From Escherichia phage P479, in the sequence record MW269952.1: a stretch of DNA of 64,000 nucleotides; one strand, given 5' to 3'. The notes beneath the pieces are model-generated. The model ran no database searches and was not told the DNA's origin. It was given only the letters and a program-made list of their open reading frames with translations. Position numbers and translations under genes: made by a program. Of the stretch, positions 8,022 through 64,000 are shown piece by piece (the first letter of the stretch is position 1; each line of letters begins with the position of its first letter).

Positions 8022-8459
8022 ATGATTAACAGAACTTTAGTTATCAAAAAACTTCGTTGTAAAAATCAAAATGCACAAGCATACAGGATGTTTTGGAGCG
8101 ACGAAATTCAATACCTGGGTTATTTTCTTGTTGATAGTGATAATAGAATTACGTTTGCTCATAAACTTCTTAACAAAGAATTAAACCATTGGCAAGAACT
8201 TATTGCGGTCAAGTCTAAATTATTTTCGCGCAATACAATGCACCAATTGGTTTATTTTTTCGCTGACGGTATTCCCGACAAGGTTGAGTTTGACGGGTTT
8301 GAATTTAAAGACATCAACCCTGATAATGAATTGAATGGCAGTATTGTTAATATGGGTATCCCAGGTAAGTACATCAAAAACAGTCTTTTGAAACTTCTGG
8401 AAACCCCTGTTTATTCAGTTGATGACCAGATTTTTAATGCCTTCATGAAGCGAGATTAG
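8022..8459 (+). CDS. hypothetical protein (146 aa)
   Basis: In-frame ATG at 8022 just after the previous stop (track ORF starts upstream at 7887); C-terminus DDQIFNAFMKRD. Confidence 0.5.
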   Translation: MINRTLVIKKLRCKNQNAQAYRMFWSDEIQYLGYFLVDSDNRITFAHKLLNKELNHWQELIAVKSKLFSRNTMHQLVYFFADGIPDKVEFDGFEFKDINPDNELNGSIVNMGIPGKYIKNSLLKLLETPVYSVDDQIFNAFMKRD

Positions 8460-8460
8460 T

Positions 8461-8817
8461 ATGAGTTATTATAATTTTCTGAATTTTGAACTGGCGAGCA
8501 ATAATGATGGTAATGCCCATTATGAATTCCGTGAGCCTCGGTTTAATCAGGCGATTGGTTATATTATCGTCAAAGATGATGTTATCATAAAGGCTCGCTC
8601 ATTCATGGTAATGAATGGACCTTATGAAGATACTCGCGGCTATCCATTTGATAAAAAGAATGTGCGCGATTGTGCAGCATGGATAACCGGAAACCCTGAA
8701 ATTGGGGTCATGATATCTACTGAAGCGAATGACATTCTGGAAGGGGTCGTCAAAGCTCAAGAACCGCCTACTGATATTGATGACCAGATTTTTAATGCCT
8801 TCATGAAGCGAGGTTGA
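8461..8817 (+). CDS. hypothetical protein (118 aa)
   Basis: ORF; C-terminus DDQIFNAFMKRG encoded by a 36-bp copy of the preceding gene's 3' end. Confidence 0.5.
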   Translation: MSYYNFLNFELASNNDGNAHYEFREPRFNQAIGYIIVKDDVIIKARSFMVMNGPYEDTRGYPFDKKNVRDCAAWITGNPEIGVMISTEANDILEGVVKAQEPPTDIDDQIFNAFMKRG

Positions 8818-8818
8818 T

Positions 8819-9040
8819 ATGTATGTTTTGACCCAATTCTCTAAAGCAATATATAGTTACTCTTGCCAGTGGGAAGTCTTTATTGATACCCCTTCGCCTA
8901 AGTATGGTGTTTTTGGGCGAGTAACTACGCAAGCTTACGTTGCGCGACCGACTAAACGTCAGATTCGTAAACTTAAAAAGGCACATCGTCAATTGATTAA
9001 AAGAAGGGAACAATATGAGTGCAATGTGTACGGGCTCTAA
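8819..9040 (+). CDS. hypothetical basic protein (73 aa)
   Basis: ORF, Lys/Arg-rich C-terminal half. Confidence 0.45.
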   Translation: MYVLTQFSKAIYSYSCQWEVFIDTPSPKYGVFGRVTTQAYVARPTKRQIRKLKKAHRQLIKRREQYECNVYGL

Positions 9041-19254: not shown

Positions 19255-19512
19255 ATGATTACTTCTTTTGAAATTGGCCAACAATATGAAATGTCTGCTC
19301 TTCAAGCTGCTGAAGCAGGTCTGACTAAAGCGTTTGAATGCGCATTTACAAATATTCGTGGTAAAATCTTTACTGTCAATAAAATTGCGGTATATGATAA
19401 AGAAACAGACATGAACAAAGGCATCTACCTGAACGTGTCAAATGCAAAAGGTCGTCGTGAAATTATGGTTGTACAACCTAATCAACTGGCGATGTTCAAT
19501 AAGGTTGCATAA
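19255..19512 (+). CDS. hypothetical protein (85 aa)
   Basis: ATG after conserved leader; track start 19207 lies inside the promoter cassette. Confidence 0.5.
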   Translation: MITSFEIGQQYEMSALQAAEAGLTKAFECAFTNIRGKIFTVNKIAVYDKETDMNKGIYLNVSNAKGRREIMVVQPNQLAMFNKVA

Positions 19513-20267
19513 TGAAACCAGAATTTATTGACTTTGATGTTGTAAGTATGTATGTTCGCCCAATTAAACCATTAAAACTTGAGAAACAAAATATGACTAT
19601 TGAAATTAACAAAACTTATCAACTGATTGAACCTATTATTCAAAACGCAGCTATGGTTTCTGGGTATAATACTCTGGCTGATGCTTTAGGTGAAGGTGAA
19701 TTTATTGTTGAAACTTTTGTAAAAAGTAACTGGTTTGATAAAGCATATATTCTGCATGCACGTCGCCTTGATACAAATGAAGTAGAAAAAATTATGGTTT
19801 ATGAAGCTGAGATTGAACTCTTCAAAGAAGTTGAAGAAACTCCTATCAAAGTTGGTAAAACCTACCAGCTTATTGAAGATGATAGTCAATTTGGAAAGAC
19901 TGTCGCAATGCATGCTGGTTGGCGGGTACTGAAAGGTATTTTTGGATTTACTCCATTTACCGTTAAAACAGTTAAGTACCACAATCACCAAAGCATCTTT
20001 GAATTTACTGCAGTCAATGAATCAGGTGACAATCTTGAAGCTATCCTTTATCCGCGTGAATCTGTACTGCTGGAAGAAGTTAGCGAACTGGGCGACCCTA
20101 TTGACTTGCTATGTAAACCAGTTCAAATCAAACGCCCATTTAACAGTTCCATTTGTGGTTGGGTAACAGACCAGTGGATTGAAGATGGTGTTGAACTCCT
20201 GAACGTTGTCCATGCTGGTGAATTTACTGTTGTACCACGTTCCATGGTTGTTGAAATTTTTAATTAA
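19512..20267 (+). CDS. MotB-related protein with internal duplication (251 aa)
   Basis: C-terminus GWVTDQWIEDGVELLNVVHAGEFTVVP matches the C-terminus of the next ORF; internal repeat KTYQLIE. Confidence 0.5.
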   Translation: MKPEFIDFDVVSMYVRPIKPLKLEKQNMTIEINKTYQLIEPIIQNAAMVSGYNTLADALGEGEFIVETFVKSNWFDKAYILHARRLDTNEVEKIMVYEAEIELFKEVEETPIKVGKTYQLIEDDSQFGKTVAMHAGWRVLKGIFGFTPFTVKTVKYHNHQSIFEFTAVNESGDNLEAILYPRESVLLEEVSELGDPIDLLCKPVQIKRPFNSSICGWVTDQWIEDGVELLNVVHAGEFTVVPRSMVVEIFN

Positions 20268-20274
20268 ATTTAAA

Positions 20275-20318
20275 GTGTACAAACTCATGGGGTCAGAGTA
20301 TAATGACCCCACTGGAGA
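20275..20318 (+). promoter_or_regulatory. early promoter plus stem-loop cassette (44-bp repeat copy 1)
   Basis: AGTGTACAAACTCATGGGGTCAGAGTATAATGACCCCACTGGAG; -10 in hairpin loop. Confidence 0.65.
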
Positions 20319-20346
20319 ATAAACTTATTAATCAAGAGAGAAAATT

Positions 20347-20838
20347 ATGAAAGTTGAAGAAGGTGATATTGTACGTGTTTCTAAAGAATCTCGTTCTAAA
20401 GCTGCTGGTCGTTTTGTTGAGGTTGTGAGTCTTCGCACTAATTTAGTAGGTGGAATTAAAGAAGTTAAAGTGCGTATTATTCCTAAACATGGTCATGCTG
20501 AAACTCAATTGGCTTATGTACATCCTAAATTCCTGGAATCAACTGAATTTACTGGATACATCGCTCCAGTAGTTGAAGAAGTTGAAACCATCGACCAGTC
20601 TCATGTTGGGGTTGATTTTAAATGGAAATTAGGTAAAGGTGTCTTTTTCGTTTCACCTAAACCGTTTGAATACAATTGCATGTACGGTCCGACTTATGAA
20701 ACCACTAGTATGTCCGGTTACATCACCGACCAGTGGGTTGAAGAAGGTGTTAAGCTGTATAATATCGTGTTCCTTGGAACCTTTAAAGTAGTTCCTGAGA
20801 GCTTTATCGTTGAGTATGCCGATATTCATTTTGCCTAA
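20347..20838 (+). CDS. motB: MotB-like protein
   Basis: 163 aa (T4 MotB 162 aa); N-terminal KOW-like GDIVRV; position between dexA and 39. Confidence 0.5.
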   Translation: MKVEEGDIVRVSKESRSKAAGRFVEVVSLRTNLVGGIKEVKVRIIPKHGHAETQLAYVHPKFLESTEFTGYIAPVVEEVETIDQSHVGVDFKWKLGKGVFFVSPKPFEYNCMYGPTYETTSMSGYITDQWVEEGVKLYNIVFLGTFKVVPESFIVEYADIHFA

Positions 20839-20839
20839 A

Positions 20840-20884
20840 TTATAAAATAATGATAGGGTTTGCCCTATCATTGAGGAGAATATT
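20840..20884 (+). promoter_or_regulatory. stem-loop plus RBS cassette
   Basis: TGATAGGGtttgCCCTATCA (8-bp stem) then TTGAGGAGAATATTATG. Confidence 0.45.
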
Positions 20885-21109
20885 ATGTTTAATGAAGATT
20901 GTGTGACCACTTCCCTGACCGCTGAAGAGTTTTGGGAAACCGCTGAAAGTGATAAAGTGATTGTGAAGAAAAACATCAATGAATTTCTTTGTACCACTGA
21001 TATCATTTATGTGTATGCGTATGAAGGTGCGGAATTACCTAGCTATGCATTGTTCCGCGAAGAATCAGAAGATGGTACAGATTTCTGGAAGGAGACTTAT
21101 AATGTCTAA
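20885..21109 (+). CDS. hypothetical acidic protein (74 aa)
   Basis: ORF after stem-loop and RBS GAGGAGAATATTATG. Confidence 0.5.
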   Translation: MFNEDCVTTSLTAEEFWETAESDKVIVKKNINEFLCTTDIIYVYAYEGAELPSYALFREESEDGTDFWKETYNV

Positions 21110-21473
21110 ATTTGAAACTGACAAGTGGTATTATTTTAAAGATAATGTTGCTGAAAGCAGATTCCGTTTGTTATGCACAGATAATGATAATATAGCTGAT
21201 GCTATAATCAATGGCGAGGGATTTAGACCAGTCAGAATTGAAGGCGGTGATGTGTATAAAATGGAATTATCAACTGGTGAATTTGTGAGCCTATTCATAA
21301 AGGAAGATGAATTCCGTTTCTTTGAAGAAGAAAAAGATGGCGATACTGAAGATGAATGCGAAGACGCAGCTCCATCTGAGCCAAGCGAATTCCCTTTGAC
21401 TAAAATCACCATTTCTAATAACTCTGAAGCCTGGACCGTTTACCAGATGTTGAAAGCACACTTTAAGGAATAA
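21102..21473 (+). CDS. hypothetical protein with acidic tail (123 aa)
   Basis: In-frame ATG at 21102 overlapping previous stop. Confidence 0.5.
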   Translation: MSKFETDKWYYFKDNVAESRFRLLCTDNDNIADAIINGEGFRPVRIEGGDVYKMELSTGEFVSLFIKEDEFRFFEEEKDGDTEDECEDAAPSEPSEFPLTKITISNNSEAWTVYQMLKAHFKE

Positions 21474-21474
21474 C

Positions 21475-21651
21475 ATGCCACTTTATGACTATAAATGCCA
21501 ATCCAATGACTGCGCGAAAGAATACGAAAAAATCAAGAAAATCTCTGAAAGAGATAATGATGTTTGCCCTGATTGCCATCGGCTGGCTGTTCGGTTAGTC
21601 TCGGCTCCTAAACATGTTAATGGTGGTTTTTACGACCTGCTGACTAAGTGA
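21475..21651 (+). CDS. FmdB-like zinc-ribbon protein (58 aa)
   Basis: MPLYDYKC...C and CPDC pairs; hand-translated; below track cutoff. Confidence 0.5.
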   Translation: MPLYDYKCQSNDCAKEYEKIKKISERDNDVCPDCHRLAVRLVSAPKHVNGGFYDLLTK

Positions 21652-21657
21652 GAAATT

Positions 21658-21918
21658 ATGAAGTACATTAATCGTTCTATTGCAGCGCTGGTTCTGGCAG
21701 TTTCATTGGCTGGCTGTACTGATACAGATAATGCTATTCGTGTGTTAGATGCAAACGGCTATGAACAAATCCAAATCACCGGATATAACTGGTTCTCTTG
21801 CGGTAAAGATGATTTCCAACATACAGGCTTTACGGCCGTGGGTCCAACTGGTAAGAAAGTTGAAGGAACTGTTTGTTCTGGTTTGCTATTCAAGAACAGT
21901 ACCATCCGATTTGAATAA
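21658..21918 (+). CDS. putative lipoprotein
   Basis: Signal peptide with lipobox LAGC; terminator follows. Confidence 0.55.
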   Translation: MKYINRSIAALVLAVSLAGCTDTDNAIRVLDANGYEQIQITGYNWFSCGKDDFQHTGFTAVGPTGKKVEGTVCSGLLFKNSTIRFE

Positions 21919-21936
21919 GGCCTTCGGGCCTTTTTG
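21917..21936 (+). terminator. intrinsic terminator
   Basis: AAGGCC-TTCG-GGCCTT then TTTT. Confidence 0.7.
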
Positions 21937-21981
21937 CTTTAAAATATGTGACTTATAATACCTCCATACACAAGAGGAAAG

Positions 21982-22782
21982 ATGATGATTAATGAAGTAT
22001 TCGGGATAATAAAAAATAAATTTCCTGATTATATTCCACCATCGAGTGGAAATAGTGGGATTTATATAATTTATAATTTAATATCTCAAAAATATTATAT
22101 AGGAAGTTCAAATGATTTTCATCGTAGAATTGCCACGCATTTTCGGAATTTATCCAAAGGTGTTGGCATAAACAGCCATTTACAGTTTGCATATGACAAA
22201 TACGGTAAAGAATCATTTGTATGCGAACTAATAGAAAATATAGAAGTTTATAATAAAAAATATTTCTTGAAAAGAGAAAGTTTCTGGATAACTGAATTAA
22301 ATTCTATCAAAAACGGTTATAATATAACGTTGGCGGATTTTGGTGGTGACACAATGTCCAATCATCCAAGAAAAGCGGAAATTAATTTACTTAAAGGCGA
22401 AGCCGTTAAAAAACGGAATAAACTGTTAGATAAAACCGAATATAATAGAATATATGGAACTGGTGTTAAAAGAAAGCCATACCCCGATGATTTTGGTTAT
22501 AATGTCTCCCTGCGTAAAGCAGGCGAAAATCATCATTTCTTTGGCAAACATCTTTCTCTTGAACACAAAGATAAATTATCAAAATTATTCTCTGGTGGTA
22601 AAAATCCCGAGGCTAAAACGTACTCTATAAATGGGGTCATATTCACAACCCGAAAAGAAGCCGCCGAAGTTCTTGGTATTAGTTATCCTACATTACGAAA
22701 ACGCTGCAAATCCGATGATGTAAAATGGTCCAGTTGGAAATGTTTAGGTTATACTAAAAATTTAGAGGTCAAAAATGATTAA
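21982..22782 (+). CDS. GIY-YIG homing endonuclease (Seg-like)
   Basis: GIYIIYNLISQKYYIGSS; AT-rich; basic C-terminal DNA-binding region; overlaps start of gene 39 by 8 nt. Confidence 0.8.
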   Translation: MMINEVFGIIKNKFPDYIPPSSGNSGIYIIYNLISQKYYIGSSNDFHRRIATHFRNLSKGVGINSHLQFAYDKYGKESFVCELIENIEVYNKKYFLKRESFWITELNSIKNGYNITLADFGGDTMSNHPRKAEINLLKGEAVKKRNKLLDKTEYNRIYGTGVKRKPYPDDFGYNVSLRKAGENHHFFGKHLSLEHKDKLSKLFSGGKNPEAKTYSINGVIFTTRKEAAEVLGISYPTLRKRCKSDDVKWSSWKCLGYTKNLEVKND

Positions 22783-24607
22783 GAATGAAATTCAAATCCT
22801 TTCTGATGTAGCTCACGTAAAAGCTCGCCCATCAATGTACATCGGTAGTGTTACCAATGAAGACAAAGAAATTTTTCTGTTTGGTGAATATAAAAAGGTT
22901 CAATACGTTCCAGGTTTAATTAAATTAATCGAAGAAATTGCAAATAACTCTATTGATGAAGCTATTCGCACCAATTTTAAATTTGCAAACAAAATTTCAT
23001 TGAATATTGATATCAAAACAAACGAAGTGACCGTTGAAGATAATGGTCGAGGCATTCCACAGGCGATTGTTGTAACCCCAGAAGGCGAAGAAATTCCTGG
23101 GCCGGTCGCTGCATGGACCAAGGTTCGTTCGGGTGGAAACTTTAGTGATGATGCAAATCGTGTTACCACTGGGATGAACGGAGTGGGGTCCAGTCTTACC
23201 AACATTTTTTCAATATTGTTCACAGGCACCACATCAGATGGGAAAAATGAATTAACCGTTAATTGTTCAAATGGACTTGATAATATTTCATGGAAATCAA
23301 AACCATCAAAGTTGCAAGGAACTAAAGTTAAATTTATTCCGGATTTTTCGAATTTTGAAACGTCTGGTTTTGACGAAACATATGTCCAAATTATGCTTGA
23401 CCAAATCCAGACTCTTGCAGTCATTTATCCGGATATCGAATTCAAGTTCAATGGTAAAAAAGTGCAAGGTCACTTTAAAAAATATGCCAAGCAATACGAT
23501 GATGAAATCATTATTCAGGAACAAGATAATTGCTCAATTGCAATTGGTCGGTCACCCGATGGTTTCCGTCATGTGACTTATGTTAACGGAATCCATACAA
23601 AAAATGGTGGTCACCATATTGAATGTGTTATGGATGAAATGTGTGATGTGTTAATCCCGGCGATTAAACGCAAGTATAAAATTGAAGTAACCAAAGCACG
23701 CGTTAAAGAATGTATTACATTGTTGATGTTTATTCGCAATATGAAGAACATGCGATTTGATTCCCAGACCAAGGAGCGATTGACTTCTCCGGCTGGCGAA
23801 ATCAAATCACATATCCAGGTTGATGGCAAAAAGTTAGCTGGTTCGTTGTTAAAATCAGAAGCTGTTCTGATGCCTATTATTGAAGCTGCATTAGCCCGTA
23901 AATTGGCTGCAGAGAAAGCAGCAGAGACTAAGGCAAATAAGAAAGCTTCAAAGGCCAAGGTACAAAAGCATATCAAGGCCAACGAATGGGGCAATGATAA
24001 GCTGGAAACGACTCTATTCCTGACCGAAGGGGATTCTGCAACTGGTCCATTTATCAAGGTTCGCGACCGTGAATTGCAAGGTGCTTATCCATTACGTGGT
24101 AAGTTTAAAAACACATGGGGTTTGAAAGCGGTTGACGTTATGAAGAACGCTGAAGCCTTTGATGTGTGTGCAATTACTGGATTAACGATTGGACAACCAG
24201 CCGAGAATATGAATTACCGAAACATTGCTATCATGACAGATGCGGATGTGGATGGCGTCGGTAGTATCTATCCATCGTTATTGGCGTTTTTCAGTAACTG
24301 GCCAGAGCTGTTCCATGAAGGGCGAATTCGCTTTGTGAAAACTCCTGTTATTATTGCACAGCTCAAAGATAAACAAGAATGGTTCTATTCTCTTCCTGAC
24401 TATGAAGAAGCTAAGGATAAACTTCCGAAGCACACCATCCGATATATCAAGGGGCTTGGTTCTCTGGAAGATTCCGAGTACAAACGCGTATTGCTCGAAC
24501 CAGTATTCGAAGTTGTTCAATTACCTGACAACTGGAAAGAACTGTTTGAAATGTTATTCGGTAAAGATTCCCAGCAGCGTAAAGACTGGATGAATGCGAC
24601 GCTATAA
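22775..24607 (+). CDS. 39: DNA topoisomerase II large subunit, gp39 with gp60 region fused
   Basis: 610 aa; GHKL ATPase (IDEAIRTNF, GRGIP) plus TOPRIM (LTEGDSA) in one ORF. Confidence 0.9.
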   Translation: MIKNEIQILSDVAHVKARPSMYIGSVTNEDKEIFLFGEYKKVQYVPGLIKLIEEIANNSIDEAIRTNFKFANKISLNIDIKTNEVTVEDNGRGIPQAIVVTPEGEEIPGPVAAWTKVRSGGNFSDDANRVTTGMNGVGSSLTNIFSILFTGTTSDGKNELTVNCSNGLDNISWKSKPSKLQGTKVKFIPDFSNFETSGFDETYVQIMLDQIQTLAVIYPDIEFKFNGKKVQGHFKKYAKQYDDEIIIQEQDNCSIAIGRSPDGFRHVTYVNGIHTKNGGHHIECVMDEMCDVLIPAIKRKYKIEVTKARVKECITLLMFIRNMKNMRFDSQTKERLTSPAGEIKSHIQVDGKKLAGSLLKSEAVLMPIIEAALARKLAAEKAAETKANKKASKAKVQKHIKANEWGNDKLETTLFLTEGDSATGPFIKVRDRELQGAYPLRGKFKNTWGLKAVDVMKNAEAFDVCAITGLTIGQPAENMNYRNIAIMTDADVDGVGSIYPSLLAFFSNWPELFHEGRIRFVKTPVIIAQLKDKQEWFYSLPDYEEAKDKLPKHTIRYIKGLGSLEDSEYKRVLLEPVFEVVQLPDNWKELFEMLFGKDSQQRKDWMNATL

Positions 24608-24610
24608 ATA
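24603..24610 (+). promoter_or_regulatory. late-promoter motif TATAAATA at the gene 39 stop
   Basis: Exact TATAAATA overlapping the gp39 stop, upstream of ORF 24650. Confidence 0.4.
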
Positions 24611-24613
24611 GAT

Positions 24614-24629
24614 GTGGGAGAATATTCTC
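24614..24629. other. perfect 16-bp palindrome just after the gene 39 stop
   Basis: GGGAGAATATTCTCCC. Confidence 0.5.
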
Positions 24630-24649
24630 CCGTCTTATAGGAGAAGTCC

Positions 24650-24802
24650 ATGAAAAAGTGGTGGGTTACGTTGTCAAATGGCGAATACGGTTATCTGTGG
24701 GCCGATACTAAACCTTTGTTTGCATCCTTTGTCACCATTATGTGCGAGACCTGGGATGGCGAATACTATACCGCATATGGGCAAGTCTATAAAGTTGAGT
24801 AG
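24650..24802 (+). CDS. hypothetical protein (50 aa), possibly late-expressed
   Basis: RBS AGGAGAAG; exact TATAAATA at 24603; terminator follows; hand-translated. Confidence 0.4.
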   Translation: MKKWWVTLSNGEYGYLWADTKPLFASFVTIMCETWDGEYYTAYGQVYKVE

Positions 24803-24805
24803 CCA

Positions 24806-24829
24806 AAAGGACCTTCGGGTCCTTTTTTA
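24806..24829 (+). terminator. intrinsic terminator
   Basis: AAAGGACC-TTCG-GGTCCTTT then TTTT. Confidence 0.75.
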
Positions 24830-24831
24830 TT

Positions 24832-24878
24832 ATGTACAAGCCATAAAAATTGTGTTAAGATGTCCTTGAGGTGAAAAT
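24832..24878 (+). promoter_or_regulatory. early promoter
   Basis: TGTACA 24833-24838, 17 bp, TAAGAT in GTTAAGATGTCC; same -10 variant as at 15100. Confidence 0.5.
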
Positions 24879-25163
24879 ATGATTATGTCCGACGGAAGTT
24901 TAGTTAATCTGCAGAATGTTGCACGTTGTATTATGGAAGCTGGTCTGAGGAAGGTGCAGGAGCTCCCAGATAGCGACAGGAAGCGAAGTTACTTGTTAGC
25001 TGTAAGAACAGCAGCCATGAGCATTAAGGCTGGCCAGAAGGTCCCTGAGGAGCGAATTGAAGCACTCCTTGCATTGATATACCATGACCAAGAACATAAA
25101 GCTACCATGCGTAGTATGAGAAAAATATTACAGGAGATTGGAAATGACGAACTTCAAAGTTAA
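24879..25163 (+). CDS. hypothetical protein (94 aa)
   Basis: ORF. Confidence 0.5.
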   Translation: MIMSDGSLVNLQNVARCIMEAGLRKVQELPDSDRKRSYLLAVRTAAMSIKAGQKVPEERIEALLALIYHDQEHKATMRSMRKILQEIGNDELQS

Positions 25164-25347
25164 TATGGAACTGTTTGATAAAGCTGTTCATAAAGAATAC
25201 CGCGTTATCCAACGATTTTTTGATATAAGAGAAGCTGAAGAGTTTAAAGAACGCTTCAAAGAAATCCGTATTAAAATAGCTTCAGACACCGCAACAAAGG
25301 ATGAACTTCTTGAAGTTGCAGAATTAATCAAACGTAACATAAAGTGA
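25138..25347 (+). CDS. hypothetical protein (69 aa)
   Basis: ORF overlapping the previous one. Confidence 0.45.
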   Translation: MEMTNFKVNMELFDKAVHKEYRVIQRFFDIREAEEFKERFKEIRIKIASDTATKDELLEVAELIKRNIK

Positions 25348-25354
25348 GAAAAAC

Positions 25355-27589
25355 ATGATTTTAGAAACTGAAAAGGAAACAATCCTTGGTAATGGTGCCA
25401 AGGCATCAGCATTCACAATCCAGGCATCTCCGAAGGTGTTTAAGATTCTGACCAGCGACCTTTATACAAACAAGGTGCGCGCGGTTGTCCGTGAGCTGAT
25501 TACCAATATGATTGATGCTCATATGCTCAATGGCTGTCAGGATAAATTCATTGTGCAAGCTCCTGGTGAACTGGACCCACGTTTTGTATGTCGTGACTTT
25601 GGTCCGGGTATGAGTGATTTCCAGATTCGTGGTGATGAAAATACCCCAGGTCTGTATAACAGTTTCTTTGCATCATCCAAGGCAGAATCCAATGATTTTA
25701 TTGGTGGCTTTGGTCTGGGTTCTAAATCTCCGTTTAGTTATACAGAGACGTTTAGCCTGATTTCATATCATGATGGACAAGTTAATGGTTATGTCGCTTA
25801 TATGGACGGCGATGGTCCACAGATTAAGCCAACCTTTAGCGAACCAATGAAACCTGGTGACCGGACGGGGATTGAAGTTGTTGTCCCGGTTGATAGTAAT
25901 GATTTTGGTAAGTTCCGCCACGAGATTGCATATATCATGCGCCCATTTGCCGGACTGGCTGAAGTACAAGGCGTAGGCGAAATTAATTACTTCCCAGAAT
26001 TTGATGATTATTATGCTCCAGCGCGTATTGATTATAGCAGCCCAGAACGTTATGGACTTTATGCAATTTATGGTGGAATTGTTTATCCGATTGGTGATGG
26101 TTATACAAAGAAAACCTGGATGACTGCCAAAAATGATGTTGTCTTTATTAAGTTCCCGATGGGTTCGCTGGATATTGCACCTTCTCGCGAAGCGTTATCA
26201 CTGGACAAACGTACGGTCGCAAATATCGTTGAACGTATTGAAGCCCTTGATAAGAAAGTCATGGAAGATGATTGTAAGAAATGGCAGGAATCAGAATGTA
26301 TCCGCCATACGTATCGCGAATTGCAGAGTCTGAGTTATGAAGCTCGTAATTTTCTGAAAGCTCGTAATGCTGAAACGAAATTTACAAAATCACAATTGAC
26401 TTTTAACCAGATGTACGAAATGTTCGAGCTGGACAAAGACCTTATTAATGCCGGGGTTGTCTATGATATCTATAGCACCACCCGTCTGAAACGTCTGCGT
26501 AACTCAAGCTCGAACACGAATACTGCAAGCCTGACAAGCATGTTTGGTATTCATAATGATACCTTGAATATTGTTATTGACGATGCTAAAGGGCGAATTG
26601 CGATGATTCGTGGTATCAGTTCAATGCTGTATGACACCAGCGCGAAAGCCAAAAAGCTCAAAGCATCTGGTAAAGTCCCGACTGTACAAGGTAGCAGTCT
26701 ATTGTTCGTTGACCCAACCAGCGAAATTCAAACACGTCTGATGGTTCAACTTCAAGAACGATTTAAAGGCGATACAGTTAATATCTATCGTACGTCTGAA
26801 CTGACCGCCCTTGTAAAAGACTGGATTCCGGTTGCGGACCCGAAAGAGCGTGTTAAGTCAAAGACTCCATCGGTGATTCGTTGGACTAAAACCAATGGTC
26901 GCTGGCAGTCTGTTGAAGAATTTACATGTGCAGCTGATGCAGAGGAAATCGATGGTTATGCTGTATTCATTAACCGCAGTAGCATTTCCCCGTTGAATCA
27001 AGAATATGGCACCACGACCTTCGGGACTCAAACATTATGCAAACTGGCAAACCTGTTGGAAATCAATGAATTCTGTGTTATTCGTCCACAGCTTCAGAAA
27101 AAGGTTACCAAGCTGGCACAGTGCGATTGTCTGATTGAAGCTGCAGTCAATCGTTATGTGGAATTGATTGATGCGGTTGATGTGGACCAGTACATTGCCG
27201 CTTCAAGCCGTTCGCGTTATTATATTCCTATCCTGTCTGAATATGCAGAACTGAATTTTATGTTCAAGTATTTTTATGCAAAAGACGTTCAGAAAGATGT
27301 GAATACTGACTATGCTGAACTAATGCAGTTCAATAAGTTCTTTGCTTATAACGCATATAACAGTGGAACAGTTGATAAGACCATGCAGGAAACTCTGGTC
27401 CTTTGCAATAAGATTTATGACGACCTGACCAAAAACGCTTCGGTAACAAGCGATAAAATGGTTTTTGAATTTGAAAAGAATCACCCGATTGTTTCACACT
27501 TTTTATATAACCGTAACGCTATGTCAACTGAACAAGTACAGAACGTTGCTCAAATCATGAAGGCCGTGGAAGCGGCCAATAAGGAATAA
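25355..27589 (+). CDS. rIIA: RIIA lysis-inhibition / exclusion-protection protein
   Basis: 744 aa; GHKL-like ELITNMIDAH; followed by rIIB. Confidence 0.88.
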   Translation: MILETEKETILGNGAKASAFTIQASPKVFKILTSDLYTNKVRAVVRELITNMIDAHMLNGCQDKFIVQAPGELDPRFVCRDFGPGMSDFQIRGDENTPGLYNSFFASSKAESNDFIGGFGLGSKSPFSYTETFSLISYHDGQVNGYVAYMDGDGPQIKPTFSEPMKPGDRTGIEVVVPVDSNDFGKFRHEIAYIMRPFAGLAEVQGVGEINYFPEFDDYYAPARIDYSSPERYGLYAIYGGIVYPIGDGYTKKTWMTAKNDVVFIKFPMGSLDIAPSREALSLDKRTVANIVERIEALDKKVMEDDCKKWQESECIRHTYRELQSLSYEARNFLKARNAETKFTKSQLTFNQMYEMFELDKDLINAGVVYDIYSTTRLKRLRNSSSNTNTASLTSMFGIHNDTLNIVIDDAKGRIAMIRGISSMLYDTSAKAKKLKASGKVPTVQGSSLLFVDPTSEIQTRLMVQLQERFKGDTVNIYRTSELTALVKDWIPVADPKERVKSKTPSVIRWTKTNGRWQSVEEFTCAADAEEIDGYAVFINRSSISPLNQEYGTTTFGTQTLCKLANLLEINEFCVIRPQLQKKVTKLAQCDCLIEAAVNRYVELIDAVDVDQYIAASSRSRYYIPILSEYAELNFMFKYFYAKDVQKDVNTDYAELMQFNKFFAYNAYNSGTVDKTMQETLVLCNKIYDDLTKNASVTSDKMVFEFEKNHPIVSHFLYNRNAMSTEQVQNVAQIMKAVEAANKE

Positions 27590-27590
27590 T

Positions 27591-28565
27591 ATGTTTAATA
27601 TTAAAGCTTTATCCAAATTTGACCAAAACCAGGTAGTTTCTCTTTATAAAACTGGTAATTATACCCAACAGGAACTAGCAGATAATTTCGGTGTATCGGT
27701 TGACACCATTCGCCGCGTTTTGAAAAATGATAAAGAATCAAAATTAGCTAAAACCATTTCTGCATCATTGAAAGCCGCTGTCGGGGTGGCGATTAATGCT
27801 CCAGTGACAGTAACGGTTGAAGTTCCGGTTGTTGAAGATACAATCGGCGGTAGCCGTCCAGAAATCGTATGGAACGCATCAAGCAAATTCGTTTCCATCA
27901 CTGAAGGTCGTACAGTCTGGAACGCAACAAAAGACCATAAACACTTTGATGATATTATTCAGGCATTGATTGAATTCCGTTATGAAGATGCTATCGAGTT
28001 TATTTCAATCAAAGCTGCAGTACAAAAATATGTGAAAGGCGATGTGCGTATTGAAGGTGGTAGTCTGTTCTATCAGGGAATTGAACTGCGCTCCGGCCTG
28101 GTTACTCGTATCATTGATTCAATGCAAAATGGCGAAGACTTTGAATTCTATCTGCCGTTCCTTGAGAATCTCCTTGAGAACCCGAGTGAGAAAGCTGTAC
28201 AGCGTTTGTTTGACTTCCTGGTTGCAAACGATATCGAAATCACCGAAGACGGTCATTTCATCGCATGGAAAATGGTTCGTTCAACCTACAAAGATTGCCA
28301 CTCAAACACATTCGACAACAGCCCTGGCCAATATGTTAAAATGCCGCGCTCTCGTGTGAATGACAATGACGAACAGACCTGTTCAACTGGGCTGCACGTT
28401 TGTTCTAAAGGTTATATCGGAAGTGGCTTTGGCCATGGTGATGGCCGCATCGTATCCTGTAAAGTTCACCCGCGTGATGTTGTAAGTATCCCGGTGGATT
28501 ATGGGGATAGTAAGATGAGGGTCTGTGGTTACCTGGTTCTTGATGATGTAACTGAACAATTCTAA
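27591..28565 (+). CDS. rIIB: RIIB protein
   Basis: 324 aa directly after rIIA (T4 rIIB 312 aa). Confidence 0.8.
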   Translation: MFNIKALSKFDQNQVVSLYKTGNYTQQELADNFGVSVDTIRRVLKNDKESKLAKTISASLKAAVGVAINAPVTVTVEVPVVEDTIGGSRPEIVWNASSKFVSITEGRTVWNATKDHKHFDDIIQALIEFRYEDAIEFISIKAAVQKYVKGDVRIEGGSLFYQGIELRSGLVTRIIDSMQNGEDFEFYLPFLENLLENPSEKAVQRLFDFLVANDIEITEDGHFIAWKMVRSTYKDCHSNTFDNSPGQYVKMPRSRVNDNDEQTCSTGLHVCSKGYIGSGFGHGDGRIVSCKVHPRDVVSIPVDYGDSKMRVCGYLVLDDVTEQF

Positions 28566-28573
28566 ATTAATCG

Positions 28574-28587
28574 GGGCTTCGGCCCCT
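28574..28587 (+). other. GC stem-loop with UUCG loop after rIIB (no T tract)
   Basis: GGGGC-TTCG-GCCCC followed by RBS of the next ORF. Confidence 0.4.
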
Positions 28588-28598
28588 AATGAGGCTTT

Positions 28599-28796
28599 AT
28601 GTTAGGTTTCCAAGCACGTGCAGTTGAAGAACATGACCAGCTGGTTTTGAAAATCAATGCTCTTGAAGAATTTATTAAGGGCGGTGTTTTTGAAACTCTC
28701 GATGCTCGTCAACAAGGTCTTTTGATTGCCCAGTTAGACGCGATGGGCGCATATGCTCATGTACTGGCAACTCGTATCTCTTATTTTGGTGAATAA
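28599..28796 (+). CDS. hypothetical protein (65 aa)
   Basis: ORF after stem-loop, RBS TGAGG. Confidence 0.5.
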   Translation: MLGFQARAVEEHDQLVLKINALEEFIKGGVFETLDARQQGLLIAQLDAMGAYAHVLATRISYFGE

Positions 28797-28799
28797 ATT

Positions 28800-29069
28800 A
28801 TGATTAAGCATTTCAATGTGTCAGACCGTGACATCAAAGTTTCAAATCTCCGGGGTCATCATTATGCAGGAATAGTTTACTGCGGTAAGCTCATCAAGCA
28901 TGAAGGTGATGTTCACTATGGTTGGTTGGAATGTGATGAAGTAGTTGTTGGGGAATTCCCTGACCCGGATTCTGATACATTTGATGCTCATGACCGTTTG
29001 TATTATGGCGAGCTTCACATCCGTGGAATCGTCGGTATCGATGAGGTCGTAAATGATTCAGAAGAGTAA
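28800..29069 (+). CDS. hypothetical protein (89 aa)
   Basis: ORF. Confidence 0.5.
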   Translation: MIKHFNVSDRDIKVSNLRGHHYAGIVYCGKLIKHEGDVHYGWLECDEVVVGEFPDPDSDTFDAHDRLYYGELHIRGIVGIDEVVNDSEE

Positions 29070-29646
29070 AACATGGGAGCATCTGAAAAAGATGCCCTCC
29101 TTTCTTTATACAAAGGAAGACTTAAACCCCGAATCCCTGCAGAAGATTGTAGATACTGCCAGGTATTCATTGCGTAAAGACCCAGGTCAGGACCGTGAGC
29201 AAGTCATGCAAAGATGCATGGTTGCTACAATGGCTGAACAAGCTATTGCTAAATGGACCTCCGGTTTTTTATGTGGCGGCGATGAAGATTACGATAATCC
29301 TTACTCCTTTGCATTTGATGTAGTTTCGAAGGAAGGGGTAAGAATCGAAGTCAAGACCCACCAGTCTGGTTCCAAATGGATATCCGTGCATACTGGCCAC
29401 CAGGGCGATTATCCGCATGGTTACGGGATTAATCTTGGGCCATTTATGCAGCACAAGCTTGCTGACCTTATGATTATGCTCGATGTAAAAGAGACTCACA
29501 AAGGTTATAGATTTAAACCAAAATTCCTTGCTGGGCCTGGTGCTTTCGTTCCTGAGTCTGGTCTTGTGCAGAAGTCACAAGGGGATGGTTGGTACCTCCG
29601 TTCTTGTTCAGAAGAAAAATTTCCCTATCACCGGTTTACAAGCTGA
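29053..29646 (+). CDS. putative PD-(D/E)xK-type nuclease (197 aa)
   Basis: FDVVSKEGVRIEVKT resembles a D...E-x-K core; occupies the T4 denB position. Confidence 0.35.
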   Translation: MIQKSKTWEHLKKMPSFLYTKEDLNPESLQKIVDTARYSLRKDPGQDREQVMQRCMVATMAEQAIAKWTSGFLCGGDEDYDNPYSFAFDVVSKEGVRIEVKTHQSGSKWISVHTGHQGDYPHGYGINLGPFMQHKLADLMIMLDVKETHKGYRFKPKFLAGPGAFVPESGLVQKSQGDGWYLRSCSEEKFPYHRFTS

Positions 29647-29693
29647 ACCAACTGTGTAATAATGTCCTCATACCAACAAATGAGGACATTATC

Positions 29694-29969
29694 ATGGAAC
29701 ACGTTACTACTCACAACATCAAACAAATTCTTATCCAAGCACTCAAAAACAACAACATCAATTTTCCAACTCATGAAATTTTTGATGTAACATTCAACGA
29801 AGTCCAGGGTCAAGTTGCATATTATGACGTTATTGTTTATCTTTCAGAATTTGAAGTCTACCACCTGACTGAAATTGCTTTATATCTCTATCGCGGGACT
29901 GCAGATTTTACTGGGGTTGTGAATGCGGTTGGTGCATATAAAGAAGTTAAAGAACAAATGCACAATTAA
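29694..29969 (+). CDS. hypothetical protein (91 aa)
   Basis: In-frame ATG after a 10-bp hairpin. Confidence 0.45.
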   Translation: MEHVTTHNIKQILIQALKNNNINFPTHEIFDVTFNEVQGQVAYYDVIVYLSEFEVYHLTEIALYLYRGTADFTGVVNAVGAYKEVKEQMHN

Positions 29970-30044
29970 AAAGTAGTGTACATCAGTATGGAGTCAGTGC
30001 ATAATGGCTTCATACTGAGTTACCAAACAGTCTGGAGAAACAAA
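29968..30044 (+). promoter_or_regulatory. early promoter cassette
   Basis: AAAAGTAGTGTACA; CATAAT 30000-30005; box TCATACTGAGTTAC; RBS GGAGAAA. Confidence 0.6.
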
Positions 30045-30308
30045 ATGAAATTTAAATTTTACTATGTCAAGCATAAAGTTACTGGGGAATTTGTTGCATC
30101 CGCGACCTTTGTCACCGGCGAAGGCGATACATACACCACAATGTTTTTATCAAAATGGGAATCAGACCAACCATATCTGTCAACTCGCGAAGACCTTCAA
30201 CGTTTGATTGATGGGCAATATAATAATTCCTGGTCCATTGATGTGTATAAATGTATTCAACATGCAATTGTTGAAAATCAACTTGAAATCATTGAGGTGG
30301 AATTGTGA
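30045..30308 (+). CDS. hypothetical protein (87 aa)
   Basis: ATG after RBS GGAGAAACAAA; track start 29976 is a GTG inside the promoter. Confidence 0.5.
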   Translation: MKFKFYYVKHKVTGEFVASATFVTGEGDTYTTMFLSKWESDQPYLSTREDLQRLIDGQYNNSWSIDVYKCIQHAIVENQLEIIEVEL

Positions 30309-30391
30309 GCAGCAGAACCTGGTGTTTTATCTGGATGTTGTGCATCCCAGTAATTTGTGTTTGTTTTAGTTTATTATTATTGAAACTTGCA

Positions 30392-30453
30392 TAAAAGAGT
30401 GTACATCTCCGGTGGTTGTAGTATAATGAACCTATCAACTACTGGAGATGATT
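30392..30453 (+). promoter_or_regulatory. early promoter cassette
   Basis: GTGTACA 30399-30405, 17 bp, TATAAT 30422-30427; box CCTATCAACTACTGGAG. Confidence 0.6.
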
Positions 30454-30564
30454 ATGAAAAAGTTACTTAAAGCCATTTGGAACATGTTTGTACTGTTTGT
30501 TGTCCTGAGCATTTTCCCAATTGTTTTTATGATTGACCATGTGCGTGTTTACTTTAACTTCTGA
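30454..30564 (+). CDS. small membrane protein (36 aa)
   Basis: RBS GGAGATGATT; hydrophobic; hand-translated. Confidence 0.35.
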   Translation: MKKLLKAIWNMFVLFVVLSIFPIVFMIDHVRVYFNF

Positions 30565-30574
30565 GGAAAATATT

Positions 30575-30721
30575 ATGGGTAATCGAATTTATAAAGTAAA
30601 GCTGCATGGTAAAGTGATTAAAACCCTTAGCTTTAATGCTTATATCAGTGCTGATTGTGCTCGTGATATCCTCATTGAGGAAGGTTATAGCAAATACATT
30701 CAAATTGAAGAAATTCTTTAA
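30575..30721 (+). CDS. hypothetical protein (48 aa)
   Basis: Preceded by CTGAGGAAAATATTATG. Confidence 0.4.
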   Translation: MGNRIYKVKLHGKVIKTLSFNAYISADCARDILIEEGYSKYIQIEEIL

Positions 30722-30738
30722 TTACTGAGGAAAATATT

Positions 30739-30942
30739 ATGAAACTTTTTAAAGATGTGGTAGTCGGTGAGAGCTTTGTATTGCATAATGGCCAACAACT
30801 GATTCGTATTTCTCCTTTGCAAGTTGGGACCGAATTACAACCTGTTAATGCTACAGACCTCAATGATTCAACTAAGCGTTTTTGCGTAGGTCCTAGTGTA
30901 CAGTGTCTTACTGTTGATGAACTGATGGCTATTTCTGAATAA
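30739..30942 (+). CDS. hypothetical protein (67 aa)
   Basis: Preceded by the same CTGAGGAAAATATTATG context. Confidence 0.45.
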   Translation: MKLFKDVVVGESFVLHNGQQLIRISPLQVGTELQPVNATDLNDSTKRFCVGPSVQCLTVDELMAISE

Positions 30943-30952
30943 GGAAAATATT

Positions 30953-31297
30953 ATGTCTAAAGTATTTTTTGGTAATCGCAACATTATGTTCTTTAAACAG
31001 ATTAGCATATCAGAAGCATTTGATTTAAGTTATTCAGGTGGTACAAAAGCTGTTAGCCTTAAAAATTTGATGTCTGCAGAATTTGCATTCTATCAGGACC
31101 CTGAAACTGGTTTCTACAAATTTATTAAGTTCCGCATGACTATGGACCGCGATTATCGTGACGTTTATTATACAAGTTATGAAAGTGTTATCAATGCAAT
31201 TCGTGAAGCTTATGGATTGGATTCGTTGTCTCTTGACCGCCTGTACAATGCAAGCCTTTACACCAGCGGATTTATTTTAGAACAGCTTCAAAAATAG
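30953..31297 (+). CDS. hypothetical protein (114 aa)
   Basis: Preceded by AAGGAAAATATTATG. Confidence 0.5.
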   Translation: MSKVFFGNRNIMFFKQISISEAFDLSYSGGTKAVSLKNLMSAEFAFYQDPETGFYKFIKFRMTMDRDYRDVYYTSYESVINAIREAYGLDSLSLDRLYNASLYTSGFILEQLQK

Positions 31298-31370
31298 TGT
31301 ACAAACTCTTGGGGTCAGAGTATAATGACCCCACTGGAGCACAAAACTTTAACTTATTGAGGAAATTAAT
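31296..31370 (+). promoter_or_regulatory. early promoter plus stem-loop cassette (44-bp repeat copy 2)
   Basis: AGTGTACAAACTCTTGGGGTCAGAGTATAATGACCCCACTGGAG; 43/44 identical to 20275-20318. Confidence 0.65.
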
Positions 31371-31820
31371 ATGTCTACTTACATGACCCGTCGTGACGTA
31401 CTGAATGCTGGCGCTACTACTGTTGCTTACATCCATAATGGTAATTATGTTGCAGGGCGCCCAACTAAAGAAGCTGTCACTCAACCAGGTTTTTATTTCG
31501 TGGTTAAAGGCGAAGGCGAATCACGTATTGTTGCTGCACGTTTTTATGTTGGTAACCAACGTTCACAACAAGGGTTTGACACTGTATTAAGTCACATCCG
31601 CAAACAACGTTCACAACTGTCGCGCACAATGGCGAACAATGGTGTTATCTATGAAGTCCTGTTTGTTCCAGTTTCTAAAATGAAACCTTTGACAACTGGT
31701 TATGGTAAAGGTCAAATTGCGATGGCGTTCACACGCTCACATAGTTCTGATTGTCAGACCCTTTCAGAAATGAATCGCATGCTTGCTGATAACTTTAAAT
31801 TCATTCTACAGAGCTATTAA
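31371..31820 (+). CDS. ndd: Ndd-like nucleoid disruption protein
   Basis: 149 aa (T4 Ndd ~151 aa); [10 protein letters not shown] and [11 protein letters not shown] recalled as Ndd-like; between rIIB and 52. Confidence 0.5.
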
Positions 31821-33547: not shown

Positions 33548-33642
33548 GTTTTGGAGTTGAGTTTGCATTGCTTTGTATTTTCGCGGCAATCGCAGGTGTG
33601 ATTGTTGGTATGTTTATTGGTAATAAGATAGATAAAGACTAG
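33544..33642 (+). CDS. tiny membrane peptide (32 aa)
   Basis: ATGA overlap with gp52 stop; single TM; terminator follows. Confidence 0.3.
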   Translation: MSFGVEFALLCIFAAIAGVIVGMFIGNKIDKD

Positions 33643-33665
33643 GACCCTTCGGGGTCCTTTTTTAT
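33641..33665 (+). terminator. intrinsic terminator (after gene 52 operon)
   Basis: AGGACCC-TTCG-GGGTCCT then TTTTTT. Confidence 0.75.
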
Positions 33666-33669
33666 TTTA

Positions 33670-33756
33670 AAAAAGTAGTGTACAATCCCCTTGACCTGAT
33701 GCATAATGATTCCATACTGAGTTACACAATGAATCACAAAAACTTTGGAGAATAAA
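33670..33756 (+). promoter_or_regulatory. early promoter cassette
   Basis: AAAAAGTAGTGTACA; CATAAT 33702-33707; box CCATACTGAGTTACACAAT. Confidence 0.6.
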
Positions 33757-50572: not shown

Positions 50573-50597
50573 AGGGGACCTTCGGGTCCCTTTTTTA
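50573..50597 (+). terminator. intrinsic terminator (after gene 32)
   Basis: GGGGACC-TTCG-GGTCCC then TTTTTT. Confidence 0.8.
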
Positions 50598-50602
50598 TTT
50601 TC

Positions 50603-50678
50603 AAAAAGTAGTGTACAAGTCCCTTGAGCTAAGGCATAATGATTCCATCAACTACTGATAACAACTGAGGAAATAAAA
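50603..50678 (+). promoter_or_regulatory. early promoter cassette
   Basis: AAAAAGTAGTGTACA; CATAAT 50635-50640; box CCATCAACTACTGATAACAACTGAGGAAA. Confidence 0.6.
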
Positions 50679-60959: not shown

Positions 60960-60972
60960 TGAGGAAAATATT

Positions 60973-62107: not shown

Positions 62108-62211
62108 TTGAGTCTTGTATTGATGGGTCGGATGTCATTCTATTTGGCTTTACATGCTTTTGTTTTGGAATCATGCTTAGCATGTGTATAAATGGTATTT
62201 TTGGAAAGTAG
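62104..62211 (+). CDS. small Cys-rich membrane peptide (35 aa)
   Basis: ATGA-coupled; hand-translated. Confidence 0.3.
   Translation: MIESCIDGSDVILFGFTCFCFGIMLSMCINGIFGK

Positions 62212-62274: not shown

Positions 62275-64000
<1,726 letters not shown>

Follow-up and report, generated by a model that had tools for sequence, protein, structure and literature searches.

In T4-type phages, composite motifs that join an early promoter to a stem-loop have been described in hyperplastic regions under the name promoter-early stem-loops, or PeSLs (Arbiol et al., 2010; PMC2839356). According to that report, PeSL stems often overlap the -10 box, often take the form GGGG...CCCC and fall into five positional classes; the motifs have a stop codon on one side and a ribosome-binding site on the other, adjoin differential open reading frames (ORFs) and can recombine into mini-circles. 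Such mini-circles were detected in RB49/phi1, where no recombinase was identified (PMC2839356). The class was later extended to T4/PST and KVP40/nt-1, with the region upstream of ndd as one of the examples (Comeau et al., 2014; PMC4122927). One PeSL stem-loop is described in these papers as reducing lacZ expression as strongly as rrnB T1 (PMC2839356/PMC4122927). The current analysis concerns a stretch of 64 000 nt from Escherichia phage P479 (sequence record MW269952.1), referred to here as the window, in which three copies of a repeat of about 50 nt lie upstream of motB, ndd and the pseT operon.

A second described system is the promoter and leader of T4 motB. The T4 endoribonuclease RegB, together with ribosomal protein S1, cuts GG^AG within a single-stranded 11 nt site of early mRNA, with the consensus GGAGRAYARAA and the ideal form GGAGAAUAAAA; motB mRNA is a model RegB substrate whose minimal form ends in GGAGUAUAAAA, and primer-extension stops have been reported for the motB promoter (Durand et al., 2006; PMC1702504). 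RNA structure shields from RegB, and hairpins discriminate between transcript classes at the T4 genes e, 49, soc and I-TevI (PMC3014915).

The three P479 copies are best read, with a probability of roughly 0.8, as one subfamily of T4-type PeSL early-promoter cassettes, constrained by their function and serving as recombination linkers as a by-product. They are long-conserved units of promoter, hairpin and leader, and not recent repeats. The repeat thus falls within the published PeSL class and is largely explained by it.

Three direct copies of one cassette

The 44-mer AGTGTACAAACTC(A/T)TGGGGTCAGAGTATAATGACCCCACTGGAG occurs at 20274-20317 (copy 1) and 31296-31339 (copy 2), and the only difference between the two across these 44 bases is A20287 in copy 1 against T31309 in copy 2. 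In a repeat search of the window the pair reaches a length of 50 nt, with 94% identity (repeat family D2). Copy 3, at 62210-62259, belongs to the same family and has 76% identity to copy 1 over 50 nt. All three lie on the + strand and are therefore direct repeats. An earlier note on this DNA had reported near-identical 44 bp copies about 11 kb apart with one mismatch, and a related copy at 62210, all of which were recovered; its coordinates were right for copy 2 but put copy 1 one base too far to the right.

A degenerate 37 nt pattern has exactly three sites in the window, namely copies 1-3, against an expectation of 0.00 from 100 dinucleotide-preserving shuffles, and a 22 nt core has two sites, again with 0.00 expected from shuffles. 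The repeat is real and far above chance. The seven largest direct-repeat families in the window (D1-D7) are, all seven, early-promoter elements of the same general design; the pair formed by copies 1 and 2 is therefore the best-conserved case of a common design and not an oddity.

The window belongs to a T4-like coliphage (genus Gaprivervirus), and its closest records, at 93-98% identity, are PSD2001, vB_EcoM_RZ, CJ20, SP18 and phage 212. Each copy has the stop codon of an ORF on its 5' side and, on its 3' side, the ribosome-binding site and start codon (ATG) of the next; the genes 3' of the copies are motB (copy 1), ndd (copy 2) and the ORF preceding pseT (copy 3). The elements and their neighbours are as follows.

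20274-20324, + strand: copy 1, composite promoter, hairpin and leader element 5' of motB (family D2; orthologous to the T4 motB promoter region)
19512-20267, + strand: motB.1-like ORF, with its TAA stop at 20265-20267, 6 nt before copy 1 (ORF and relatives' annotation)
20347-20838, + strand: motB, putatively served by copy 1, ATG at 20347 (ORF and annotation of SP18, RZ and PSD2001)
31296-31346, + strand: copy 2, composite element 5' of ndd (promoter pattern, fold, family D2)
30953-31297, + strand: 114 aa ORF, whose TAG stop at 31295-31297 overlaps the start of copy 2 (ORF list, alignment of relatives)
31371-31820, + strand: ndd (nucleoid disruption protein), putatively served by copy 2, ATG at 31371 (ORF and annotation of MN01, RZ, CJ20, DK-13 and VR7)
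62210-62259, + strand: copy 3, composite element (promoter pattern, fold with z -4.5, family D2)
62104-62211, + strand: 35 aa hydrophobic ORF, whose TAG stop at 62209-62211 overlaps the start of copy 3 (annotated in phage dhabil)
62275-62577, + strand: 100 aa ORF (JS98 gp217-like), putatively served by copy 3, ATG at 62275 (relatives' annotation)
62574-63479: pseT, following the 100 aa ORF (relatives' annotation)

In copies 2 and 3 the upstream stop is a TAG contained in a TAGTGTACA/TAGTTTACA motif. The 35 aa ORF (62104-62211, + strand), which lies between the spanin gene pseT.2 and copy 3, encodes a very hydrophobic product (MIESCIDGSDVILFGFTCFCFGIMLSMCINGIFGK), and its sequence is strongly diverged in PSD2001.

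Early promoters

Each copy contains a -35 box of the form TGTACA or TTTACA (matching at five or six of six positions), a spacer of exactly 17 nt and a perfect TATAAT, and an A/T-rich stretch can be read 5' of the -35 box in all three. All three promoters face the downstream gene. In copy 1 the hexamers are:

20276-20281, + strand: -35 hexamer TGTACA, with a 17 nt spacer to the -10
20299-20304, + strand: -10 hexamer TATAAT, the last T of which (20304) is the first base of the 3' stem arm described below (pattern and fold)

The corresponding positions are 31298-31303 (-35) and 31321-31326 (-10) in copy 2, and 62212-62217 (-35, TTTACA) and 62235-62240 (-10) in copy 3. About 19 sites on the + strand of the window fit an extended consensus, AAAAAGTAG-TGTACA-N17-YATAATG, and behind each comes one of a small set of conserved leaders; judged by this consensus, these sites are the early promoters of the phage.

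Start sites were placed by the usual spacing from -10 to +1, and initiation at copies 1-3 in P479 is thus putative. The orthologous site in T4 lies 5' of motB and can be aligned with the copy 1 region, and the motB site is annotated as a 'predicted early promoter' in phage fPS-65. The T4 record NC_000866 has no annotated promoter features, so the promoter status of the T4 site is taken from PMC1702504 and from the fPS-65 annotation. A chance likeness among strong promoters was also considered and rejected: the copies share spacer and stem, and are orthologous across genomes.

Hairpin around the -10 box

Folding predicts a stem of 8 bp, TGGGGTCA/TGACCCCA, with a loop, GAGTATAA, that encloses the -10 box. 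The arms in copy 1 are:

20288-20295, + strand: 5' arm TGGGGTCA (RNA fold -17 kcal/mol, z -3.0; covariation)
20304-20311, + strand: 3' arm TGACCCCA, of which the last base, A20311, is the putative start site (fold, covariation)

The loop of copy 1 is 8 nt long (20296-20303) and holds five of the six bases of the -10 box. An outer helix can be added, in which CTC(T) pairs with (G)GAG; the CTC of copy 1 is at 20284-20286. The arms lie at 31310-31317 and 31326-31333 in copy 2, and at 62224-62231 (TGGGAGCA) and 62240-62247 (TGCTCCCA) in copy 3. RNA folding energies for the three copies range from -16 to -20 kcal/mol (z -3 to -5). Since the putative start lies inside the 3' arm, the only molecules in which the hairpin could form are sense read-through RNA from upstream and single-stranded DNA (ssDNA) of the + strand.

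Amongst orthologous and paralogous copies, the stem occurs as GGGGTC/GACCCC, GGGGCC/GGCCCC, GGGGCC/GGTCCC, GGGACC/GGTCCC and GGGAGC/GCTCCC, and further as GGGAGC/GTTCCC, GGGAGT/ACTCCC, GAGAGC/TCTCTC and GGGATC/GGTCCT. Covariation was counted in an ungapped alignment of 38 nt comprising 19 distinct copies from GenBank phages of the genera Gaprivervirus, Tequatrovirus, Mosigvirus and Dhakavirus; an earlier gapped alignment had a gap in the 3' arm that falsely broke the first pair, and was not used for the counts. Klebsiella phage pzk-kv8, with which only the common leader and not the promoter is shared, was excluded from the copy count. Pairing is retained in 98% of the 152 stem cells, and compensatory double changes are found in four of the eight stem pairs (19 cells). 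None of 500 shuffles attains the observed pairing or covariation score, and when the partner is slid by 1-3 columns as a control, pairing is 33-47%. On the + strand there are 14 G·U cells against a single C·A; counted by lineage, this amounts to at least nine independent G·U events against one (our own count). The G·U pairs are almost confined to the sense strand, which is therefore the strand that folds.

Rfam covariance models at the gathering score gave no matches in the whole window, and a pattern scan of IMG/VR viral contigs gave no match. Three pattern matches in JGI metagenome contigs were discarded as chance, the hairpin being absent from them.

A stem placed just past a stop codon and selected on the sense strand is also what would be expected if the hairpin were an ordinary Rho-independent terminator of the upstream gene, overlapping the next promoter by happenstance, and the PeSL stem-loop that lowered lacZ like rrnB T1 in the PeSL papers is in keeping with this. 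Rho-independent terminators are recognized by a G+C-rich hairpin followed directly by a U-run, however, and in copies 1-3 the stem is followed by ACTGGAG or ACGGATT in place of a T-run. The loop is 8 nt, a scan of the window for terminator-like sites lists none of the three copies, and true UUCG terminators with T-runs are found nearby (at 21917, 24805 and 33641). A terminator of this ordinary kind is therefore unlikely.

The arrangement could alternatively reflect an operator, in which a dimeric phage or host DNA-binding protein would bind a dyad-symmetric site across the -10 box and shut early promoters off. A perfect dyad GGG..N..CCC does bracket the -10, its outer GGG/CCC is nearly invariant, and early promoters are shut off within a few minutes post infection (PMC2988021). 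An operator is nevertheless improbable: copies in the same genome differ in the inner stem (GGGGTC/GACCCC against GGGAGC/GCTCCC) by compensatory changes, a G·T bias restricted to the + strand would be meaningless for the recognition of duplex DNA, and the stems found in this position at other window promoters are unrelated.

RegB-type leader motif

Directly 3' of the stem, at about +4 of the transcript, is a GGAG or GGAU followed by an A-rich tail. In copy 1 this is:

20314-20324, + strand: RegB/S1-type motif GGAGAATAAAC, matching the ideal GGAGAAUAAAA at 10 of 11 positions

By this comparison, copy 1 has a near-ideal RegB-type site. The motif is GGAGCACAAAA in copy 2 (31336-31346), with C at position 5, and GGATTATAAAA in copy 3 (62249-62259), in the GGAU form. 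A fourth copy present in relatives, described below, has GGATAATAAAA after its stem. In T4 motB, GGAGTATAAAA stands directly after the stem, and the GGAGUAUAAAA that ends the minimal RegB substrate is the exact T4 sequence 3' of the motB hairpin. By analogy with T4, RegB may cut these leaders in P479.

In the predicted fold of the copy 1 read-through RNA, GAG (20315-20317) pairs with CTC (20284-20286). Partition-function folds give the GGAG of T4 motB an unpaired probability of 0-0.1 in read-through RNA against about 0.9 in the promoter's own transcript; the values for copy 1 are 0.2-0.6 and about 0.9. The GGAG of copy 2 has an unpaired probability of 0.02-0.1 in read-through RNA, and its own transcript exposes just the last two bases. 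One possibility, which we regard as doubtful, is that the hairpin acts as a switch between transcript classes, by which the RegB site would be hidden in read-through RNA and exposed in RNA from the promoter itself.

Such a switch would resemble the T4 e and I-TevI arrangements, in which the promoter lies in or beside the 5' arm of a hairpin, so that read-through RNA folds and the promoter's own RNA, without the 5' arm, does not. In the T4 examples (e, 49, soc and I-TevI) the promoters are late ones and a ribosome-binding site is masked, whereas the promoters here are early and the masked element, where masking is predicted, is a RegB motif at the 5' end (except at 30400, described below).

Conservation in relatives and comparison with described elements

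The sequence of copy 1 is found in 248 phage records, at three or four places per Gaprivervirus genome, and also 5' of motB in T4 (82% identity). That of copy 3 is found in 727 records at 1338 places, in Tequatrovirus, Mosigvirus, Dhakavirus and Gaprivervirus. Copies 1 and 2 precede motB and ndd in every Gaprivervirus examined, and the motB copy is common to T4 and other genera. Copy 2 is invariant in eight genomes but for three single-base differences, one each in MN01, CJ20 and DK-13.

The motB promoter and leader of T4 (PMC1702504) is the positional orthologue of copy 1. It has the same spacer and the same loop, its stem is the compensatory variant GGGACC/GGTCCC, and 2-3 nt beyond this stem comes GGAG with an A-rich tail. 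The T4 motB copy is nearer to copy 3 of the window (TTTACA, GTGGAGTATAAAAT) than to its positional counterpart, copy 1, which suggests past exchange between loci. At the threshold of the search, one copy of the subfamily is found in T4, whereas in P479 the same type of cassette would also serve ndd and the pseT operon. The T4 motB site is proven; the P479 leader variants GGAGAAUAAAC, GGAGCACAAAA and GGAUUAUAAAA are putative sites.

Compared with PeSLs as set out in PMC2839356 and PMC4122927, the copies share a sigma-70-type early promoter with an A/T-rich upstream stretch, a preceding stop codon and a following ribosome-binding site and ATG. They are predicted to fold into a stable stem-loop, with a G-rich and a C-rich arm that can overlap the -10 box. 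As in PeSLs, a genome has many copies, which are concentrated in hyperplastic early regions before small ORFs (about 19 sites in the window), and they lie next to ORF indels or replacements between close relatives, here in small numbers. In relatives of the DK-13 type, one ORF lies between two direct copies. The stem positions of the window promoters match the positional classes described in that text. There are also differences. PeSLs are described there from RB49/phi1, T4/PST and KVP40/nt-1 and not from Gaprivervirus; the stems of T4/PST are said to lie just 5' of the promoter, whereas here the -10 is inside the loop; and the window copies are without the T-run of a canonical terminator. Stem covariation, sense-strand bias and a coupling to RegB are not mentioned in the available text of the two papers.

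Gene replacements and indels at the cassettes

The cassettes coincide with mosaic and indel junctions in relatives. A fourth copy, a promoter-hairpin unit of about 50 bp, is present in DK-13, MN01, YenP8, SP18, VR26 and others, 412 bp 5' of copy 2, which places one ORF between two direct copies in these genomes. The same two genes occur without the 50 bp unit in VR7, CJ20 and about six more genomes judged by match spans. In the window, the site is empty:

30934-30952, + strand: empty site of the fourth copy (alignment with relatives)

In further genomes, homology to DK-13 breaks off some 10 nt short of the fourth-copy site or begins just past it. Microhomology fails to yield the exact sequence of the empty site.

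An alignment of the region from denB to ndd (window and seven relatives) shows conserved islands alternating with segments that occur as two alleles of 40-75% identity in 40 nt windows. Alleles of adjacent ORFs assort independently, with boundaries in conserved promoter islands. The 114 aa ORF upstream of copy 2 (30953-31297) has two alleles in relatives, of about 40-75% identity in 40 nt windows, and its last 50 nt or so are conserved; identity jumps from about 50% to about 100% some 50 nt 5' of copy 2. Elsewhere, an ORF indel in relatives begins at 30037, directly after the leader of the promoter at 29977, and an extra ORF of about 520 bp (about 172 aa) is found directly 3' of copy 3 in PSD2001, VR7 and CJ20, and is absent from the window and SP18.

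A comparison of synteny, as the earlier note had proposed, thus does find breaks at the copies, namely the allele boundary about 50 nt 5' of copy 2, the indel of about 520 bp 3' of copy 3 and the fourth copy of about 50 bp. The suggestion that cassettes bound variable gene blocks is borne out in spirit, in that gene replacements and indels abut the copies, but it does not extend to the 11 kb between copies 1 and 2. This interval (motB, cef, goF, gene 39, rIIA, rIIB and denB) is syntenic in all relatives, small indels aside, and with gene 39, rIIA, rIIB and denB inside it is not an exchanged cassette. Nor do the copies provide a substrate for inversion, all being direct repeats. As to the alternative of selection or recent spread, selection accords with orthologous loci in all Gaprivervirus examined and in T4 and with the covarying stem, whereas recent spread does not accord with copies fixed before motB and ndd and a motB copy in T4. 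The function of promoter, hairpin and RegB motif, overlooked at that time, would alone explain why the copies persist.

A ribosome-binding block, TGAGGA(A/T)AATATTATG, precedes several small ORFs (30561-30580, 30934-30952 and other ORF starts in 29600-31400) and coincides with allele-replacement and indel junctions in relatives. Promoters are therefore not the sole conserved linkers in this region.

In the Botstein-Campbell view of modular phage evolution, short conserved sequences between variable genes act as linkers, and integron attC cassettes provide an analogy. The cassettes resemble such linkers in being short conserved crossover points at which modules arrive with their own expression signals. 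They differ in that no dedicated recombinase is known for them, general homologous recombination on about 50 bp being enough in T4-type phages.

A more specific form of this idea, raised by Arbiol et al., is that the element is a folded ssDNA recombination site recognized by its structure, as in integron attC, with cassettes moving by site-specific exchange; lytic T4-type phages would then run an integron-like cassette exchange built on early promoters. The structure is indeed conserved more than the sequence and with a strand bias, the ends of homology blocks come to a few nucleotides from the fourth copy, a copy of about 50 bp is gained or lost as a unit, and mini-circles are described for RB49/phi1 in PMC2839356. 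The same paper identifies no recombinase in RB49/phi1, and none was sought in the window. RNA tolerates G·T pairs better, many of the region's junctions are at ribosome-binding sequences without hairpins, and T4 recombination requires just about 50 bp of homology (Singer, 1982, cited in PMC2839356). We consider such a site very improbable.

Least probable of all is a small mobile element (MITE-like, that is, a miniature inverted-repeat transposable element, or a transposed promoter) that recently spread to several sites: near-identical copies, the fourth copy as a discrete presence/absence polymorphism of about 50 bp between the same two genes and the hint of inter-locus exchange in the likeness of the T4 motB copy to copy 3 would fit it. 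Against it, every Gaprivervirus examined has copies 1 and 2 at these same loci, and T4 and further genera share the motB copy (727 records). Apart from the functional stem, neither terminal inverted repeats nor a target-site duplication nor a transposase are evident, and all copies are in working promoter position facing the downstream gene.

Proposed role of the cassettes

The PeSL cassettes of this subfamily would each pack an upstream stop codon, a sigma-70 promoter, a G+C-rich stem of 8 bp and a GGAG/GGAU leader motif into about 50 bp. Host RNA polymerase would use the promoters right after infection, giving transcription of motB, ndd and the pseT operon. The stem is predicted to hold the -10 in its loop and to end at the putative start site. 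The most likely role of the hairpin in read-through RNA is to mark or shield the 3' end of the message from upstream, or else to attenuate read-through itself; for copies 1 and 2 and T4 motB, the folds also predict that it masks a RegB site which would be exposed in the promoter's own transcript. Dense functional constraint and long-term conservation, and not recent duplication, would account for the near-identity of the copies. Amongst fast-diverging small ORFs, islands of about 50 bp could serve as homologous linkers through which T4-type recombination swaps, inserts or deletes neighbouring genes, and crossovers may fall within the element itself.

Several observations weigh against this account. 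Start sites, read-through, termination and RegB cleavage at the copies are all predictions from the sequence, and the missing T-run and the absence of copies 1-3 from the scan for terminator-like sites leave the terminator part of the PeSL description unsupported. GGAU sites, as in copy 3, are seldom cut (2 of 30 in T4), and C at position 5, as in copy 2, is rare among good RegB sites (PMC1702504). The GGAU of copy 3 is unpaired in both RNAs in partition-function folds, so masking of RegB sites is not general. No relative in which the ORF between the fourth copy and copy 2 is deleted was found among 96 records. In the 1.8 kb denB-ndd alignment a promoter is no more than 60 nt away from about three of five boundaries, a share that is not significant alone, and other junctions are at a conserved ribosome-binding block, TGAGGAAAATATTATG; the association of junctions with promoters involves small numbers and is not statistically secured.

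The cassettes show how a large lytic phage may fit stop codon, promoter, RNA hairpin and RNase site into some 50 bp, and why distant units stay near-identical. The early hyperplastic regions, where genes for host takeover and anti-defence reside, would owe their mosaic gene content to conserved islands of this kind. For the annotation and engineering of T4-like therapeutic phages, indels are likely at the cassettes, and inserted genes can use them for expression. Stem covariation with sense-strand G·U pairs is modest new evidence for selection, at the RNA level, on the stem-loop half of PeSLs, and the leader motif provides a testable link between PeSLs and RegB-dependent decay of early mRNA.

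Other promoters in the window

At 10 of the 19 early promoters, the fold is matched or surpassed by no more than 2% of shuffles. The design with the -10 in the loop is found at eight of the 19, with unrelated stem sequences; amongst the remaining window promoters, some have a stem over the -35 box and a T-run, and some a stem in the spacer. Three of these promoters are:

29977-30040, + strand: promoter with a 14 bp stem around the -10, z -6.1 (promoter pattern and fold)
30400-30460, + strand: promoter with a long hairpin that pairs the spacer with the leader and the GGAG ribosome-binding site, z -4.8 (promoter pattern and fold)
33641-33715, + strand: terminator-plus-promoter element with UUCG hairpin, T-run, A-rich stretch and promoter (family D1; 89% identity over 70 nt to 50579-50648)

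The D1 pair (33641-33715 and 50579-50648) is the textbook terminator-plus-promoter form of PeSL. The early promoters can also be grouped by a transcribed leader of about 20 nt, CCATACTGAGTTACACAATAA or CTATCAACTACTGA/GGAG. One group comprises the promoters at 6696, 15836, 29977, 33679 and 52022, the other those at 7090, 7670, 19195, 30400, 50612, 51045 and 60666. At 29977 and 30400 the leader pairs with its own spacer, forming hairpins of 14-17 bp around the -10. In Klebsiella phage pzk-kv8 (OR231917.1; Marfavirus, outside the Tevenvirinae), at about 395-440, the same leader CGGATGATAAAATTTTGAGGA stands behind a UUCG terminator hairpin in place of a promoter. The module can thus also be found without the promoter.

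Homing endonuclease-like genes and small duplications

Just 5' of gene 39 is an ORF of 266 aa (21982-22782, + strand) that is absent in PSD2001 (alignment gap 21993-22775). At the same position, vB_EcoM_RZ annotates a 'putative endonuclease', and the ORF is probably a mobile homing endonuclease gene. A second candidate is an ORF of 185 aa (63393-63950, - strand) that overlaps the 3' end of pseT; the annotations of SP18 and VR7 call it a MobE-like or intron-like homing endonuclease. In many relatives the similarity to the window breaks off at about 63458, a pattern that points to an ORF which only some genomes carry.

The alc gene is represented by two adjacent ORFs, 60726-60959 and 60871-61476 (alcb and alca in SP18). 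They share a stretch of 65 nt at 74% identity (family D8; 60738-60802 and 60988-61052), and from their sequences the pair is a tandem partial duplication or a split gene. Finally, a direct repeat of 45 nt with 93% identity (family D11; 8419-8463 and 8777-8821, 358 bp apart) ends in ATG and looks like a junction between tandem paralogous small ORFs.

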